42,147 bases of DNA from a virus, in the IMG/VR virus record IMGVR_UViG_3300045988_041214, positions 1-42,147 of that record; one strand, given 5' to 3'. Both the position numbers and the translations under genes were made by a program. Under the pieces are notes generated by a model. The model did no database searches. It saw only the letters and a program-made list of their open reading frames with translations, and was not told the DNA's origin. The number at the start of each line of letters is the position of its first letter. The stretch's first letter is position 1. Shown one piece after another: positions 11,659 through 16,371 of the stretch.

Positions 11659-11831
11659 CGCTTGACCCGCCACCGGACTTGGTGGAGATCGCCGAAGCCT
11701 TGGATGCGATGGCGAAACCACACGTGGGAAGCGGATGGGCGAACACCAACTACACCGATCTGCCCTGCACCACGCCACGGCAGGAAGCAATCTGGATGGC
11801 ATACAACGGCATCACAAGAGGAGAGGATTAA
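11652..11831 (+). CDS. Hypothetical protein (59 aa, below the ORF-track cutoff)
   Basis: Read by hand: MVTLDPPPDLVEIAEALDAMAKPH... Its stop TAA shares one base with the next gene's ATG. It is more coding-like than the Arg/Trp-rich ORF 11662..11850. Confidence 0.45.
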   Translation: MVTLDPPPDLVEIAEALDAMAKPHVGSGWANTNYTDLPCTTPRQEAIWMAYNGITRGED

Positions 11832-12667
11832 TGAGAATCAGGACGATTAGACCTGAATTCTACAGTTCAGAGAGCGTCGGCTCCATGACGTGGAAGACGC
11901 GACTCGTGTTCATCAACCTCTGGTCTTATGTTGAGGACAATGGCGTGCAGCTCGACAATCCGCGTCTCTTCCGCGGCCAGTGCATGCCGTATGACGATTC
12001 CGTCCTCGATGGCATCGAGGACGCCTTCGCGGAATTGGAGCAGTGCGGCAGCATCATCCGCTACGAGCGCGACGGCAAGCGTCTCCTCTTCATTCCCGGC
12101 TTCGAGAAATGGCAGAACATCCAACGTCCGGGCACCTGCCACTACCTGCCACCGGACGGCTGGGACAAGCGTGGACACAAGGTCATTCCGGAGGATTCCG
12201 GACAGTTGCAGGAACATTCCTGCGAGTCTCCGGAGGATTCCGGACAGTTGCACGACTGTAGTAGTAGTAGGAGTAGTAGTAAGAGTAGAAAGAAAGAAGA
12301 AGAAAATAAATTTTCTTCTTCCAAAGAAATCACCGCCGAAGCGTTCCATGATTCCACGGACTACACCACCGCCATGTCGGCGATCAAAGCGGAATACGCG
12401 AATCTCGCCGTTACTGACGCTTGGAACGCATTCTTAAGCCGACATTATAGCGAAAACCGCACGATAGCCGACTGGACGCGCCTATGGAAAGGCTGGTGCC
12501 AACGCCGCGCCAACATGAGCGGCATACCACCGTCGAAACGCCATGTGCACACGTGGCAGTGCGAACACGTCCTGCAAGCGCTCGGACGCGACAAGGAAAC
12601 CGCCACACCAGACCAACAAGCCTGCCAACTCGCAGAACGACTCAACAAGGAGCAGAACACACAATGA
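11831..12667 (+). CDS. Putative replication organiser/initiator with internal iteron-like repeats
   Basis: N-terminus MRIRTIRPEFYSSESV...RLVFINLWSYVEDNG resembles phage replisome-organiser N-domains. Contains two 24-bp repeats and a purine-rich low-complexity linker. Confidence 0.5.
   Translation: MRIRTIRPEFYSSESVGSMTWKTRLVFINLWSYVEDNGVQLDNPRLFRGQCMPYDDSVLDGIEDAFAELEQCGSIIRYERDGKRLLFIPGFEKWQNIQRPGTCHYLPPDGWDKRGHKVIPEDSGQLQEHSCESPEDSGQLHDCSSSRSSSKSRKKEEENKFSSSKEITAEAFHDSTDYTTAMSAIKAEYANLAVTDAWNAFLSRHYSENRTIADWTRLWKGWCQRRANMSGIPPSKRHVHTWQCEHVLQALGRDKETATPDQQACQLAERLNKEQNTQ
12187..12252. repeat. Two exact 24-bp direct repeats TCCGGAGGATTCCGGACAGTTGCA
   Basis: Copies at 12187-12210 and 12229-12252, offset 42 bp. 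Each contains TCCGGA-ggat-TCCGGA. Followed by an A/G-rich stretch at 12258-12322. Confidence 0.9.
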
Positions 12668-12822: not shown

Positions 12823-12962
12823 AGAAAATACTCGAAGACATGATCATCAAGTGGCATCAGGCCGGTTACGCGCTTGACGAGATCGCGCCGCTCGTGCCGC
12901 AGGTGCCGAAAGCGGAAGTCGCCGCGATCATCCGCCAGCACGACAAGGAGACCAGACTTTGA
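12819..12962 (+). CDS. Hypothetical protein (47 aa)
   Basis: ATGA coupling. Confidence 0.5.
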   Translation: MKKILEDMIIKWHQAGYALDEIAPLVPQVPKAEVAAIIRQHDKETRL

Positions 12963-13711
12963 CCAACTGCCAGCACTGCCACAAGCCAATGAAACCGGCG
13001 ACGGCGAACCTGCTATGCGCATCATGCCGCACGGACTACTGGACCATGATCCGCCAACTCGGACACGTCCAACTGCCCGCATTAAGCTCCATCATGCTCA
13101 AACAAGCACACATCGGCAGCACAGGCCACACGCCAAGCCGAGGCAACGCGCCAATGCCAATCGACACCCACGCTCAAGACCTCATCGCAGACAGCGAAGC
13201 ATGGTTGGCGGAACAGGCGGGCAAAATACGCGCCGCATACGCCGCATACGACTGGCGGAAAGCATGGTATGCCATCATCAGCAACCGTCACACGACGTTG
13301 AACATGCCAACCGCAGCAGATGATTACACCAGCCTGGAACACATCAGCCGACGCAACGAGACAGCATTGACACCAGAGAGCGAGCTGATAATCCTCGGCA
13401 CCTGCCCCACCTGCCGCCACCAGCTCACCGGTACACCAGACGCCGAGTCGGTCACATGCCAACACTGCCGTACCGAATGGGCGGCACCAGCCATCAAAGC
13501 AGCACGAGACGAACGACTGTGGCAAGTGCAAATCACCGGCACGCCAAGCGACGCAGCCAAGGAACTGAAACGCTACGGCCTGACCATCAGCCGCAACCTC
13601 GTCAGCCAATGGCTCAGACGCGGCAAGTTGCACGCCACGCCGACAAACACCAAGAACCAGTACGTGTTCAACCTCGGCGAGTTGGCCGCACTACTTGACT
13701 GTCACCGTTGA
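12959..13711 (+). CDS. Hypothetical Cys-rich protein with C-terminal HTH (TTG start)
   Basis: RBS AAGGAG 8 nt before the TTG. Contains CQHC...CASC and CPTC...CQHC pairs and the HTH-like segment AAKELKRYGLTISRNLVSQWLRRG. It is the last early gene before the late promoter. Confidence 0.6.
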   Translation: MTNCQHCHKPMKPATANLLCASCRTDYWTMIRQLGHVQLPALSSIMLKQAHIGSTGHTPSRGNAPMPIDTHAQDLIADSEAWLAEQAGKIRAAYAAYDWRKAWYAIISNRHTTLNMPTAADDYTSLEHISRRNETALTPESELIILGTCPTCRHQLTGTPDAESVTCQHCRTEWAAPAIKAARDERLWQVQITGTPSDAAKELKRYGLTISRNLVSQWLRRGKLHATPTNTKNQYVFNLGELAALLDCHR

Positions 13712-13722
13712 AATGCTATACT
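13695..13722 (+). promoter_or_regulatory. Near-consensus sigma-70-type promoter (TTGACT-16 nt-TATACT)
   Basis: The hexamers read directly from the sequence. Points into the hairpin, tRNA-like gene, HNH and terminase genes. Confidence 0.6.
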
Positions 13723-13741
13723 GTCGTATGTTCGTAGAATG

Positions 13742-13772
13742 AATGGCCCAGCATAATGATAGCTGGGCCATT
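13742..13772 (+). other. 11-bp perfect hairpin in the leader of the tRNA-like gene
   Basis: AATGGCCCAGC-9 nt-GCTGGGCCATT with no trailing T-run, 10 nt before the tRNA-like 5' end. Confidence 0.7.
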
Positions 13773-13781
13773 ATCATATAA

Positions 13782-13941
13782 GCTTCGGTAGCTCAGTGGC
13801 AGAGCACAAGGGATGGCACAGATACCAATGGACGGATACCAAACCGGCCGTGGCTTCCTGCTTCTTTCAATCGAATGCCCGTGATGATAAAGACAGTGCA
13901 TCCCACACCACGCGCTGGTTCGACTCCAGCCCGAAGCACCA
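13782..13941 (+). ncRNA. tRNA-like gene with canonical acceptor, D and T arms and encoded CCA, but about 95 nt in place of the anticodon arm
   Basis: GCTTCGG pairs with CCGAAGC (7 bp). D-arm is GCTC-AGTGGCA-GAGC. T-arm is GCTGG-TTCGACT-CCAGC. Discriminator A plus CCA. Nt 13810-13904 form a helix-closed insert (GGGATG(G)CAC / GTGCATCCC). Confidence 0.6.
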
Positions 13942-13955
13942 AAGGCGGTGAATCA

Positions 13956-14264
13956 ATGCCAGGAAGAACGCGCAAGACAAGCCGCCAATTCGAAAAAGAC
14001 AAGGCCGCATTCTTCAACCAATGCAAGGCACAGCATGCAGTCTGCTGGTTGTGTGGTATGCCGATAGATTATTCAGCACCGAAGAACACAAGCGATGACA
14101 GCTTCAACCTCGACCACCTCTACCCAGTCTCGAAGCACCCCGAACTCCAATTCGACCCGGCAGGCTTCAAACCAAGCCATACCAGCTGCAACCGATTGCG
14201 CGGCAACCAAGACCCACCAGCACCAATCGGAACACTCTCAAGACAATGGATAACAACAGCATGA
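13956..14264 (+). CDS. HNH endonuclease (terminase-associated type)
   Basis: CWLCG ... NLDHLYPVSKHP ... HTSCNRLRGN. RBS AAAGGCGG before the ATG at 13956. Lies immediately upstream of terS and terL. Confidence 0.8.
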   Translation: MPGRTRKTSRQFEKDKAAFFNQCKAQHAVCWLCGMPIDYSAPKNTSDDSFNLDHLYPVSKHPELQFDPAGFKPSHTSCNRLRGNQDPPAPIGTLSRQWITTA

Positions 14265-14405
14265 GCCCTCACAGCAAGGGGTAGGGGCGGTGAAATCGTA
14301 AAACCAACGACAGAGCGCAAGACGTCCCGCGTGGTTGCTCTTCCTCTCCCCGATGGCCGAAATTGACCGGGGGTCGCGCGCGCGATTGCAGATTCGAGGT
14401 GAAGC

Positions 14406-14747
14406 ATGTCGGTGAAATTTCCGAGTCATAATGTGGCGGAGGCTTTGGAGCGTTCATTGAAGAACGCCGATGGGCTGAAGGCCGTGAATTCCGCAGTGGT
14501 CGCGGCCGCCCGCGTATTGGCTGGTCGGATTGACTTCCTGAATGCCACCGGATTCGTTGACGAGAACGGGAAGATCGACAATGTGACTCTGCCGACTTTC
14601 TTGAAATACTGCCAGTCTCTCGGATTGACTTTGGACGCTCCAGCGAAGGTCGGGCGTCCGGCTAGGCAGAAGCCCGAAGTCAGGGCTGAGGAAGCGAAGA
14701 GCGACAAGGTTATCGCGATGGATGATTTTATGAAGCGTTTCGGCTGA
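14406..14747 (+). CDS. terS: Terminase small subunit
   Basis: 113-aa protein directly upstream of terL, with a basic C-terminal region. Called by position. Confidence 0.65.
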   Translation: MSVKFPSHNVAEALERSLKNADGLKAVNSAVVAAARVLAGRIDFLNATGFVDENGKIDNVTLPTFLKYCQSLGLTLDAPAKVGRPARQKPEVRAEEAKSDKVIAMDDFMKRFG

Positions 14748-14757
14748 GGAGGTTGCG

Positions 14758-16371
14758 ATGGCGGCTGAGGATCTGGAGGTTTTCGGCGCCATCGACGATG
14801 AGAGGCATGGCGTGACCTTGCCGCGTATCTTCACGCCGTCGTTGCGCCCGTTGACCAAGGAGACGAGCAATGGTTTCGCGGTGATCGCATTCGCGGAGAT
14901 CATGCTGCACGTGCATCTCTATCCGTGGCAGCAGTGGCTACTCGTCCATGCTTTGGAATTGCTGGAGGACGGCAGCTATCGCTTCCGCAAGGTCATCGTG
15001 CTTGTGGCCCGCCAGAATGGCAAGACAACGCTTATGGGCGTGCTTGCCGCGTGGTGGCTGTTCGTGGATTCCAACAAGCATCCCGACCGAGTGCCGCCCG
15101 TGAAATTCCTCGTGGTCGGCGCCGCGCAGACATTGGACAACGCGAAAGGCCCTTACAATCAGGTCAAGGAGTGGTGCAATCCTCAGCCTTCGACCGATGA
15201 GGAAGCGGATCTGGTGATTCCGGATCTCGCTGCGATGACGCAGAAATTCGTCAACACTAACGGCGAGGAGGCGATCATCACCCGCTCGAAGGCGCGGTAT
15301 ATCGTCCGTGCCGACAAGAACATTCGAGCAAAATCAGCTGCCCGTGTCGTGTTCGACGAGCTGCGTGAGCAGCATACGGACGATGGCTGGAATGCCGTGT
15401 CGCAGACCACGAAGGCAGTCTGGTCGAGCCAATTATGGGGCATTTCCAACGCTGGCGATTATAGGTCTGTGGCGTTGCGCAAGCAGGTGGACAAGGGCCG
15501 CAAGCTTGTTGACGAGTGGACGCGTCTGAGCGCCGACGGTGGCAATCCGGCCGACGTGTTCCTGTCCGGCGAGCAGGACGGCTCTTTCGGATATTTCGAG
15601 TGGTCTGCGCCTGACAAGTGTCCGGTGGATGACGCCGACGCTATTCGCCAGGCGAATCCGTCGCTTGGCTACGGGCCGATGACCGTCATGTCGGTTCGGT
15701 CCGATATTGACGGCATGACCGAGGCGGCGTTCCGCACCGAGGTTCTGTGCCAGTGGGTCACGGCTGACATCATTCCTTTCATCAGCCCGAAAATGTGGGC
15801 CAGCGGCATCGACTCGCGTTCCACGATACCGGACGGCAATCGCGTCGTACTGTCCGTGGACACGTCGGCTGACCGTAAGACCACGTATGTGGCCGCTGCC
15901 GGCATTCGTGCGGACGGGTTGCCTCATGTTGAGCTGATCGCTCGCCGTGACGGCATGCTGTGGGTGCCGCATTATCTTGACCTGCTCCAGGAGCGTTGGC
16001 CGCACATCACGGAGATCGCCGTGCAGGGCAAGGGATGTCCGGCCGTGGACTTCATCGACCCGCTCACCGAAAAAGGGTGGACGGTGCATCTCATCGAAGG
16101 CTTCCGTCTGGGCGCGTGCTGCGGTCGTTTCCATGACCGTGTGCGTGAGGGGAAGCTGCGGCATCTTCCGCAGCCTGCCATCGAACAGCAGGTGAGTGTG
16201 GCCGTGTCCCGTAGGCTCGGCGAGGTCGAGGTGTGGGACAGGACAAAATCAGCATTGCAGATTTCCGGCTTGGTTGCCGAATCGCAGGCGCTATATGCCT
16301 TGGAGACCATGCAAGTCGAAGCGGAGACACCGAAATATGCGCCGAGCGTGACTCATTTCGCAGTCGTATGA
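14758..16371 (+). CDS. terL: Terminase large subunit
   Basis: Walker A-like VARQNGKTT, LYPWQQW entry motif, size of 537 aa and position. Confidence 0.9.
   Translation: MAAEDLEVFGAIDDERHGVTLPRIFTPSLRPLTKETSNGFAVIAFAEIMLHVHLYPWQQWLLVHALELLEDGSYRFRKVIVLVARQNGKTTLMGVLAAWWLFVDSNKHPDRVPPVKFLVVGAAQTLDNAKGPYNQVKEWCNPQPSTDEEADLVIPDLAAMTQKFVNTNGEEAIITRSKARYIVRADKNIRAKSAARVVFDELREQHTDDGWNAVSQTTKAVWSSQLWGISNAGDYRSVALRKQVDKGRKLVDEWTRLSADGGNPADVFLSGEQDGSFGYFEWSAPDKCPVDDADAIRQANPSLGYGPMTVMSVRSDIDGMTEAAFRTEVLCQWVTADIIPFISPKMWASGIDSRSTIPDGNRVVLSVDTSADRKTTYVAAAGIRADGLPHVELIARRDGMLWVPHYLDLLQERWPHITEIAVQGKGCPAVDFIDPLTEKGWTVHLIEGFRLGACCGRFHDRVREGKLRHLPQPAIEQQVSVAVSRRLGEVEVWDRTKSALQISGLVAESQALYALETMQVEAETPKYAPSVTHFAVV

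Follow-up and report, generated by a model that had tools for sequence, protein, structure and literature searches.

A tRNA-like RNA whose anticodon arm is replaced by a three-way-junction domain, encoded ahead of the packaging genes in temperate phages of gut Bifidobacterium

Few natural mimics of transfer RNA (tRNA) that do not decode have been described, among them transfer-messenger RNA (tmRNA, SsrA), Y-RNA-like RNAs and viral tRNA-like structures. We report here a tRNA-like RNA encoded at 13782-13941 of IMG/VR virus record IMGVR_UViG_3300045988_041214, of which positions 1-42,147 (one strand, 5' to 3') are the whole stretch of DNA analyzed and are referred to as the window. The RNA would add a well-populated, structurally supported gut-phage family to the few mimics listed above. 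It joins the full top half of a tRNA to a conserved junction domain at the anticodon position, a combination otherwise met mainly in engineered tRNA scaffolds. It is a conserved, structured, non-coding and non-decoding tRNA-derived RNA, and it is an exchangeable module heading the packaging/late operon of temperate phages of gut Bifidobacterium, in which its gene is conserved. No description of this RNA was found in the searchable literature.

Several described systems share parts of this design. The acceptor stem, D and T arms, discriminator and CCA of canonical phage tRNAs are indistinguishable from those of the element, and in tRNAs carrying group I introns the insertion likewise lies at the position of the anticodon arm. 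Engineered "tRNA scaffold" RNAs follow the same plan, with an intact acceptor/D/T body and a cargo helix at the anticodon-stem position. Such RNAs with a replaced anticodon arm were reportedly found by Ponchon and Dardel in 2007 to be stable and processed in bacteria. The scaffold design gives processing by RNase P and 3' enzymes as well as nuclease resistance in bacteria. YrlA RNAs are bacterial Y-RNA-like RNAs and tRNA mimics, some of them phage-encoded; like the element, they mimic the elbow of the D and T arms and join it via the anticodon-stem position to another functional helix. MALAT1 mascRNA and the tRNA-microRNA units of gammaherpesviruses are cellular and viral tRNA-like processing modules. 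Like the element, tmRNA retains an acceptor stem, a T arm and a CCA end and has, where an anticodon arm would be, a long helix leading to further structure. Phage-encoded versions of tmRNA exist, one of which is reduced to its tRNA-like part and is a proposed inhibitor: in mycobacteriophage DS6A, this tRNA-like domain has been proposed to titrate SmpB (PMC4131195). Finally, the t-elements of plant mitochondria are tRNA-like structures that define the ends of messenger RNAs (mRNAs) (PMC1920247). In these systems a tRNA-like fold abuts an mRNA or other RNA, and RNase P or RNase Z acts on the fold to make transcript ends; the element likewise abuts an mRNA.

Homologues were drawn from IMG/VR, human-gut metagenomes and a Bifidobacterium ruminantium genome, and comprise ~227 loci with 108 distinct sequences of 144-162 nucleotides (nt). 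Pairing and compensatory-change statistics were calculated from an alignment of the 108 sequences; counts for ARAGORN intron mode, the T loop, the D loop and the ACCA end were made in 107 sequences. A covariance model built from 69 of the 108 sequences found a single copy in the window (177.5 bits, E 3e-47). Eighty syntenic loci were fetched via the upstream protein and not via the RNA; the covariance model found 59 full-length copies in these loci, always at the identical position and on the identical strand.

The minimum-free-energy fold of the window sequence is a cloverleaf with a long helix in the anticodon position. We refer to this helix as P1, to the hairpins that it encloses as H1 and H2, and to the junction strands as J1 and J3. 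Across the acceptor, D, P1, H1, H2 and T helices, 90.9% of alignment cells are paired, compared with 24.8-37.7% in a slid-partner control in which the 3' partners were shifted by 1-3 columns. Seven pairs have changed on both sides, and these are located in P1, H1 and the T stem. Compensatory changes occur at four pairs of P1 (G:C to A:U in 28 sequences, A:U to G:C in 17, and two more that are double-changed), one T-stem position is found with three pair types (U:A 61, C:G 28, G:C 18), and a neighboring position is C:G in 88 sequences and U:A in 18. In the acceptor stem 95.8% of cells are paired, with six pairs nearly invariant, and in the D stem 99.3%. The elbow nucleotides U8, A14, G18-G19 and U54-U55-C56 are kept in the window and in the commonest subtype, type 1 (see below). 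The D-loop GG is present in 106/107 sequences, the T loop reads UUCGACU in 77/107, and ACCA is found in 89/107 distinct sequences regardless of which HNH type follows; natural variants without CCA (GCACUU...) also occur. Insertions and deletions of 1, 2, 4 and 5 nt separate the homologues, and their lengths fall in every class modulo 3; this excludes a coding function, including for open reading frames (ORFs) that overlap the element. We conclude that this is very probably a genuine family of tRNA-like, non-decoding RNAs. A preliminary description of the window had read an acceptor stem, D arm, T arm, discriminator, CCA and closing helix in this region, and all of them stand where it placed them. 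It had also allowed that homologous phages might show no conservation of the region beyond chance arm-like segments. The covariance model, the 108 homologues and the compensatory pairs show instead that conservation goes beyond chance.

A 4-nt linker leads from the D stem to P1, a bulged helix of 9 base pairs (bp) that stands instead of an anticodon arm, encloses 76 nt and opens into a three-way junction with H1 and H2. Near-invariant in the alignments are AGAUACC in J1, both stems of H1, CCAUGGC, GAAUGCCCGUGAU and AGUGC, and the variable parts are the H1 loop, the H2 loop, J3, the linker and the variable region. The run GAAUGCCCGUGAU (13873-13885) comprises the 3' strand of H2 and the first three nucleotides of J3 (GAU). 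The third pair of H1 occurs as A.G, A.A, A:U or U:A, the H1 loop differs in both sequence and length, and the H2 loop is missing altogether in locus L196. Within type 1, J1, GAAUGCCCGUGAU and the stems of both hairpins are invariant or nearly so, and P1, J1, H1 and the base of H2 are common to type 1 and the divergent type 2. The insert is under selection. In 120 metagenome pattern matches, the insert core was found only within the tRNA frame and never outside it. A GATACCAA direct repeat, noted earlier in the insert, does occur twice; it is not conserved, its second copy being the variable H1 loop.

With default settings, ARAGORN found no tRNA or tmRNA anywhere in the window and none in the homologues. 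Rfam 15 gave no match over the whole window at gathering scores and nothing relevant within 13600-14050 at a relaxed E of up to 10, and the homologous loci, scanned at E up to 1, gave no tRNA, tmRNA or intron match. Of the parts of a decoding tRNA, the window sequence and type 1 possess the 7-bp acceptor stem, the discriminator, CCA, and D and T arms with their elbow nucleotides; what they do not have, one nucleotide beyond the D stem, is a 5-bp anticodon stem closed by a 7-nt loop. The RNA cannot decode, because it has no anticodon loop and its long arm is ~3 times the length of an anticodon arm. Unlike a tRNA with a group I intron, it has no anticodon arm either before or after removal of the insert.

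The likeness to tmRNA also has limits. Whereas tmRNA has G3:U70, the element has U3:A70 (U:A in the window and in 106/108 sequences, G:U in none), and whereas tmRNA is without a D stem, the element has a canonical 4-bp one. The pseudoknots and tag reading frame of tmRNA are not conserved in the element, and the short frames that follow CCAUGG are different in, or missing from, individual variants (alignments judged by eye). Neither an ARAGORN tmRNA search nor the Rfam tmRNA models gave a match. Because the element has U3:A70 and a D stem and no tag frame is conserved in it, we rejected both tmRNA and a tmRNA consisting of the tRNA-like domain alone. YrlA ends in a Ro-binding stem and has a loop-closed acceptor, whereas the element ends at an open acceptor stem with CCA; no Y-RNA-like or tRNA-mimic Rfam family was matched at gathering score or at E up to 10, and no Ro-binding consensus was seen. 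A Y-RNA-like identity was rejected on this topology and on the lack of an Rfam family. Engineered tRNA scaffolds are artificial, whereas the element is natural, conserved and situated in an operon leader. The t-elements and their kin belong to eukaryotes or organelles and are for the most part minimal tRNA mimics; a conserved 95-nt junction domain is found in none of them, and cleavage of the element is a prediction. Inspection by eye also led us to reject a hammerhead core (junction strand lengths and order do not fit), a kink-turn or box C-D reading of GUGAUGA (the partner strand is without GA, and GAUGA is unconserved in type 1), and 5S-like or 11-nt tetraloop-receptor motifs (not conserved). 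The element fails the defining features of a tRNA, an intron-containing tRNA, a tmRNA and a YrlA RNA, and belongs to the broad class of tRNA-like or tRNA-mimic RNAs.

The element lies directly upstream of the HNH and terminase genes, as first noted, and is predicted to be co-transcribed with them; positions of all features are given in Table 1. No terminator was found in the sequence between the RNA and HNH. With such co-transcription, a processing-associated role and a tRNA-like decoy or other non-decoding role are both possible. The promoter and leader hairpin ahead of the RNA are common to 80/80 syntenic loci, and in the ~227 loci the element invariably falls between this pair and the Shine-Dalgarno of the HNH-terminase operon. 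The promoter had been described as the best in the window; its hexamers are joint-best rather than sole best, and it is the only match with a TG element. In most homologues the loop of the hairpin is of the GAAA type and a UUUUUCAUAU or UUAUUCAUAU tail comes after the stem; because of this tail, the hairpin looks like an intrinsic terminator. A constitutive-looking promoter and terminator-like hairpin before late genes would recall the PR'-tR' layout of lambda, and by this analogy the upstream Zn-ribbon/helix-turn-helix (HTH) protein would be a candidate regulator. That protein gave no informative PDB or NCBIfam match. The genes after TerL look, by position, like portal and head genes.

Table 1. 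Positions of the tRNA-like RNA, its parts and its neighbors in the window (aa, amino acids)
Feature	Position	Strand	Remarks
Replication-initiator-like gene	11735-12667	+	Upstream of the element in gene order
250-aa protein with Zn-ribbon and HTH-like features	12959-13711	+	phrog_908 match; precedes the element
Sigma-70-type promoter TTGACT-16-TATACT, TG extended -10	13695..13722	+	Hardly varies among 105 distinct homologous loci
Leader hairpin, 11-bp stem AATGGCCCAGC / GCTGGGCCATT, 9-nt loop	13742..13772	+	Stem sequence varies between loci, pairing kept
Whole tRNA-like RNA	13782..13941	+	160 nt; covariance-model match and 108 distinct homologues
Acceptor stem, 5' strand GCUUCGG	13782..13788	+	Pairs with 13931-13937; 7 bp
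D arm GCUC-AGUGGCA-GAGC	13791..13805	+	Preceded by U8-A9; has A14 and G18-G19 equivalents
P1, 5' strand GGGAU(G)GCAC	13810..13819	+	9 bp, one bulged G, at anticodon-stem position; contains loop-like AUGGCAC
Junction strand J1 AGAUACCAAU	13820..13829	+	AGAUACC / AAAUACC kept in both subtypes (alignments)
Hairpin H1 GGACGG / CCGGCC	13830..13849	+	Variable 6-10-nt loop; conserved non-canonical third pair
Hairpin H2 (GU)GGCUUC ... GAAUGCC(CGU)	13850..13882	+	Loop variable, dispensable
Junction strand J3 GAUGAUAAAGACA	13883..13895	+	A-rich, length variable (alignments)
P1, 3' strand GUGCAUCCC (DNA GTGCATCCC)	13896..13904	+	Pairs with 13810-13819
Variable-region equivalent ACACCACGC	13905..13913	+	9 nt in window; 6-9 nt in homologues
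T arm GCUGG-UUCGACU-CCAGC	13914..13930	+	99.6% paired
Acceptor 3' strand CCGAAGC, discriminator A and encoded CCA	13931..13941	+	CCGAAGC 13931-13937, ACCA 13938-13941
Shine-Dalgarno AAGGCGGUG, then HNH ATG	13942..13958	+	Starts 1 nt after CCA; ATG at 13956
HNH endonuclease gene, 102 aa	13956..14264	+	phrog_338 match; first ORF of packaging operon
TerS	14406-14747	+	Packaging operon
TerL	14758-16371	+	Packaging operon

The 80 syntenic loci show that the slot between hairpin and HNH is a cassette that holds this RNA, a divergent subtype, an unrelated structured RNA, or nothing. Type 1, the type of the window, occupies 47/80 loci and type 2 occupies 12/80; an unrelated RNA of ~150 nt (type 3) is found in 15/80, a fourth, different sequence in 1/80 (L213), and deletion derivatives in 4/80, and one locus of the 80 (L204) was left unclassified by our scripts and looks by eye like type 3. 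The cassette boundaries are the 5' end of the RNA and its CCA. Type 2 is a divergent homologue that keeps the acceptor, the D arm, P1 (GGAAU / AUUCC, GCG / CGC), GAUGA, J1 as AAAUACC, H1 as GGUCGG / CCAACC and the H2 base as AUGG / CCAU, its H2 otherwise being different; the H2 base pattern retained is AUGG / CC(G/A)U. Type 3 is closed by an 11-bp helix, UGUCCGGCAUG / CAUGCCGGACA, and 7/45 of its predicted pairs are compensatory in 8 sequences; it is located at L228:3331-3498, with relatives in L218, L226, L229, L235, L242, L243 and L262, in the same slot as 13782-13941 of the window, and gave no Rfam match. The types of cassette, hairpin, T stem and HNH vary independently of one another, and in the homologous loci no link was seen between leader-hairpin type and either RNA type or T-stem type. 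Common Bifidobacterium prophages carry, at the head of the packaging/late operon, an exchangeable slot that also houses at least one other structured RNA.

Deletion derivatives were seen in two forms. In L219 and L230, J1 "...AGATACCA" is joined straight to "AGGCGGTG" by a deletion between two ACCA motifs, and in L214 and L215 the stretch from H1 to the T stem has been lost between CGGTC repeats. Such natural derivatives imply either that the RNA is dispensable or that those prophages are defective.

Pattern scans placed the element in at least 73 IMG/VR contigs. Bifidobacterium ruminantium DSM 6489 carries it too, as do a gut metagenome-assembled genome labeled Collinsella and one unannotated phage record from human feces (MT836208), and 86/120 metagenome pattern matches, mostly from human gut, contain it. 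The exact upstream protein occurs in one NCBI isolate assembly and in many sequencing runs. Phages BigBern1 and Bbif-1 have the upstream gene, and no such RNA was found in them.

It is hypothesized that host tRNA-maturation enzymes would treat this RNA as a pre-tRNA, as should be expected because the acceptor/T minihelix, the D/T elbow and RCCA are retained. The same three features are the structural prerequisites of processing in the manner of t-elements or tRNA scaffolds; cleavage itself we infer. The determinants read by RNase P, the CCA-adding enzyme and 3'-end enzymes all appear to be retained. RNase P would cut at G13782, and the 3' end would be set at or near CCA either by an endonuclease of the RNase E or RNase Z type or by trimming. 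RNase E can form a mature CCA end in one cut (PMC5291269). These cuts would release a stable RNA, L-shaped and resistant to nucleases, that presents the conserved three-way junction on its long leg, with the tRNA body acting as a natural scaffold and the junction domain as an effector that probably binds a protein. The same cut would leave the HNH-terminase mRNA beginning at its ribosome-binding site. Strong conservation of the junction suggests that the junction domain, and not only the tRNA body, is functional, and the cassette behavior and occasional loss of the RNA suggest an accessory, possibly host-directed role. This complete mechanism of processing plus scaffolding is the one that we tentatively favor, at somewhat below an even chance. 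More specific and rather unlikely in its full form is the proposal that a tRNA-scaffolded three-way-junction effector is excised from the late transcript by host enzymes and then targets a host protein in trans, for instance by serving as a decoy for, or an inhibitor of, tRNA-directed defense or translation or tRNA metabolism, the other cassettes of the slot being similar weapons. If true, the "tRNA scaffold" would have been invented by nature as well.

A number of observations speak against the favored mechanism or reduce its support. The fold energy is ordinary for the base composition (z = -1.34), and the acceptor and D stems essentially never vary, so that their support comes from conservation and not from covariation. 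In type 2 the T loop is the non-canonical UCCGACU (C55) in 26/28 sequences and acceptor pair 7:66 is mismatched in 28/28, which weakens the case for selection on full compatibility with tRNA enzymes. In some related prophages the slot holds a deletion or an unrelated RNA, so the RNA is not essential across the group. Processing by RNase P and 3' enzymes is predicted entirely from sequence and structure. Moreover, with CCA encoded and the Shine-Dalgarno 1 nt away, exonucleolytic 3' maturation would destroy the ribosome-binding site of HNH; a given transcript may thus either yield the RNA or serve as mRNA, instead of doing both. Lastly, the conserved single-stranded runs had no antisense targets beyond chance within the prophage.

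The element may alternatively be a purely cis-acting leader of the late operon without any action in trans, either because the fold is a t-element-like signal for processing or stability or because the RNA modifies the elongating polymerase. In one variant, RNase P would trim the leader and leave a base-paired, protected 5' end on the HNH-terminase mRNA. The RNA comes after the promoter and its terminator-like hairpin and before the Shine-Dalgarno, and no terminator follows it; this position agrees with such a role, as does the t-element precedent (PMC1920247), and admission of the unrelated type 3 RNA, itself closed by a long terminal helix, to the same slot suggests a leader function at the level of structure. 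However, an acceptor/T minihelix suffices for RNase P, which leaves ~60 nt of conserved insert core unexplained, the cassette is lost in some phages, and an RNA downstream of the terminator-like hairpin cannot help polymerase to pass it. We consider a leader function confined to cis possible, although the weight of probability lies against it.

Doubtful, and less probable than a cis-acting leader, is an anti-defense or host-takeover decoy, in which an anticodon-less tRNA mimic titrates a host factor that reads the acceptor end or the elbow, such as a toxin that modifies or cleaves tRNA 3' ends or another tRNA-binding protein, with the junction adding affinity or specificity. This would be a special case of the scaffolded-effector mechanism with a named class of target. 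A mosaic accessory cassette that is present, absent or swapped in close relatives is typical of counter-defense loci, the strongest promoter-like site in the window drives the RNA, and the tRNA-like inhibitor of DS6A provides a precedent (PMC4131195). Against a decoy, no defense system or partner was identified, a stoichiometric decoy must compete with the whole tRNA pool, and, if a terminator stands before it, the RNA would not appear until late in infection, when counter-defense should already be under way. Anticodon nucleases, moreover, would not be decoyed by an RNA without an anticodon loop.

We also weighed a functional tRNA, with an Ala-like anticodon loop AU-RGC-AC, that carries a new kind of small intron of 74-82 nt removed by an unidentified bacterial or phage activity, and we judge this very improbable. 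In its favor, ARAGORN in intron mode can model the window sequence as tRNA-Ala(GGC) with an 82-nt intron at 38/39, AUGGCAC bears what we take to be a resemblance to the anticodon loop of tRNA-Ala, and in a subtype with the 3' segment CCCCUC, and in no other, a clean 5-bp GAGGG / CCCUC stem with the 7-nt loop AUAGCAC is possible. The modeled "anticodon stem" of the window, however, consists of just three G:C pairs, and across 107 variants the calls are scattered over Cys, His, Thr, Phe, Gly, Ile, Arg and Ala, with none for 51 sequences, among them 28/28 of type 2. G3:U70, and with it alanine identity, is lacking; the insert core is more conserved than the would-be anticodon stem and the variable region; and no insert-free allele was seen in ~227 loci. 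The insert, at 75-95 nt, is too short for a group I or group II intron (a group I intron has ~200 nt or more), and no model of either was matched. A bulge-helix-bulge intron is not indicated either, the exon junctions and isotypes being inconsistent among homologues; a single subtype has a 3-nt bulge beside a 4-bp GCAC / GUGC helix, and a second bulge was not found. We know of no tRNA splicing endonuclease in bacteria. These results agree with the preliminary description where it had read a tRNA-like gene without an anticodon arm (no tRNA by ARAGORN default or Rfam, and only a 3-bp stem in intron mode), had denied that this is merely an ordinary tRNA carrying an insertion (neither an anticodon arm nor a splice junction is consistent among the homologues) and had excluded a group I intron. 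Its suggestion of an intron-containing tRNA of an unusual type fares poorly, given the inconsistent isotypes, the 3-bp stem and an insert core that is more conserved than the would-be exon parts. It is possible that AU(R)GCAC is a relic of a tRNA ancestor, now locked in P1.

A role in packaging, also put forward earlier, has likewise lost ground. The sequence GGGGTAGGGGCGGTGA at ~14279-14294, within the HNH-TerS intergenic region (14265-14405), resembles the terminal sequence GGGGGGTAGGGGGTTACCGCCCCCT of Bifidobacterium phage BigBern1 (end of L263), a phage in which the upstream gene is accompanied by a promoter-like site, a hairpin and HNH, with HNH as the last gene before the genome end. By this resemblance, 14279-14294 is the probable cos region, in which case the right end of the virion genome would carry the tRNA-like RNA together with HNH. 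The element itself was rejected as the cos site since the BigBern1-like terminal sequence sits after HNH, and loop-loop pairing like that of phi29 pRNA was rejected by eye, the H1 and H2 loop types assorting independently and without co-variation. That the element has no RNA function and is either a tRNA pseudogene in decay or a site acting as DNA (such as cos/pac or a hotspot of recombination) is hardly credible even though the region is mosaic and deletion-prone and several metagenomic contigs break near the element, for compensatory changes preserve helices in P1, H1 and the T stem, single-stranded elbow nucleotides are conserved, the whole architecture is retained in 108 variants, and the likely cos GGGGTAGGGGCGGTGA lies downstream of HNH.

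The locus offers a tractable system for studying how structured RNAs of temperate phages take part in late-gene expression or host manipulation in a key human commensal. It also presents an annotation problem, as gene callers miss the RNA and in places absorb it into an N-terminally extended HNH ORF. In L388 and L389, gene callers have extended the HNH ORF upstream through the RNA (2285-2806, 173 aa versus 102 aa), and the window ORF at 13875-14264 is the HNH frame extended into the RNA region. The RNA region is likely mis-annotated as coding in public records.

Searches for distant versions gave little. A loose pattern returned mostly chance matches, and the 34 remaining metagenome pattern matches were set aside as unrelated, including a sediment sequence family in which AGAUACC is found only as a hairpin loop. 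This family, from sediment and other metagenomes (L273, L274, L284, L292, L310, L313, L316, L331, L345, L379 and L383), is a chance pattern match characterized by a CUUCAGAUACCUGAAG hairpin and GGCCGGAAUACUCCCUUCCAUGGC; it appears unrelated to the tRNA-like RNA, and the five members scanned (L273, L274, L284, L313 and L316) had no Rfam match at gathering score.

At its left end (1-83), the window opens on the 3' part of a host tRNA gene, and a terminator hairpin comes next at 61-83; this fits a prophage and is probably the attachment side. The host tRNA has a long variable arm, the T arm GTGGG-TTCGAGT-CCCGC, the acceptor sequence TGGAGGC, discriminator A and no encoded CCA, and is weakly matched by the covariance model (E 0.11). 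Also near the left end of the prophage, the ORF at 865-1794 has a DEDD (DnaQ-like) 3'-5' exonuclease domain.

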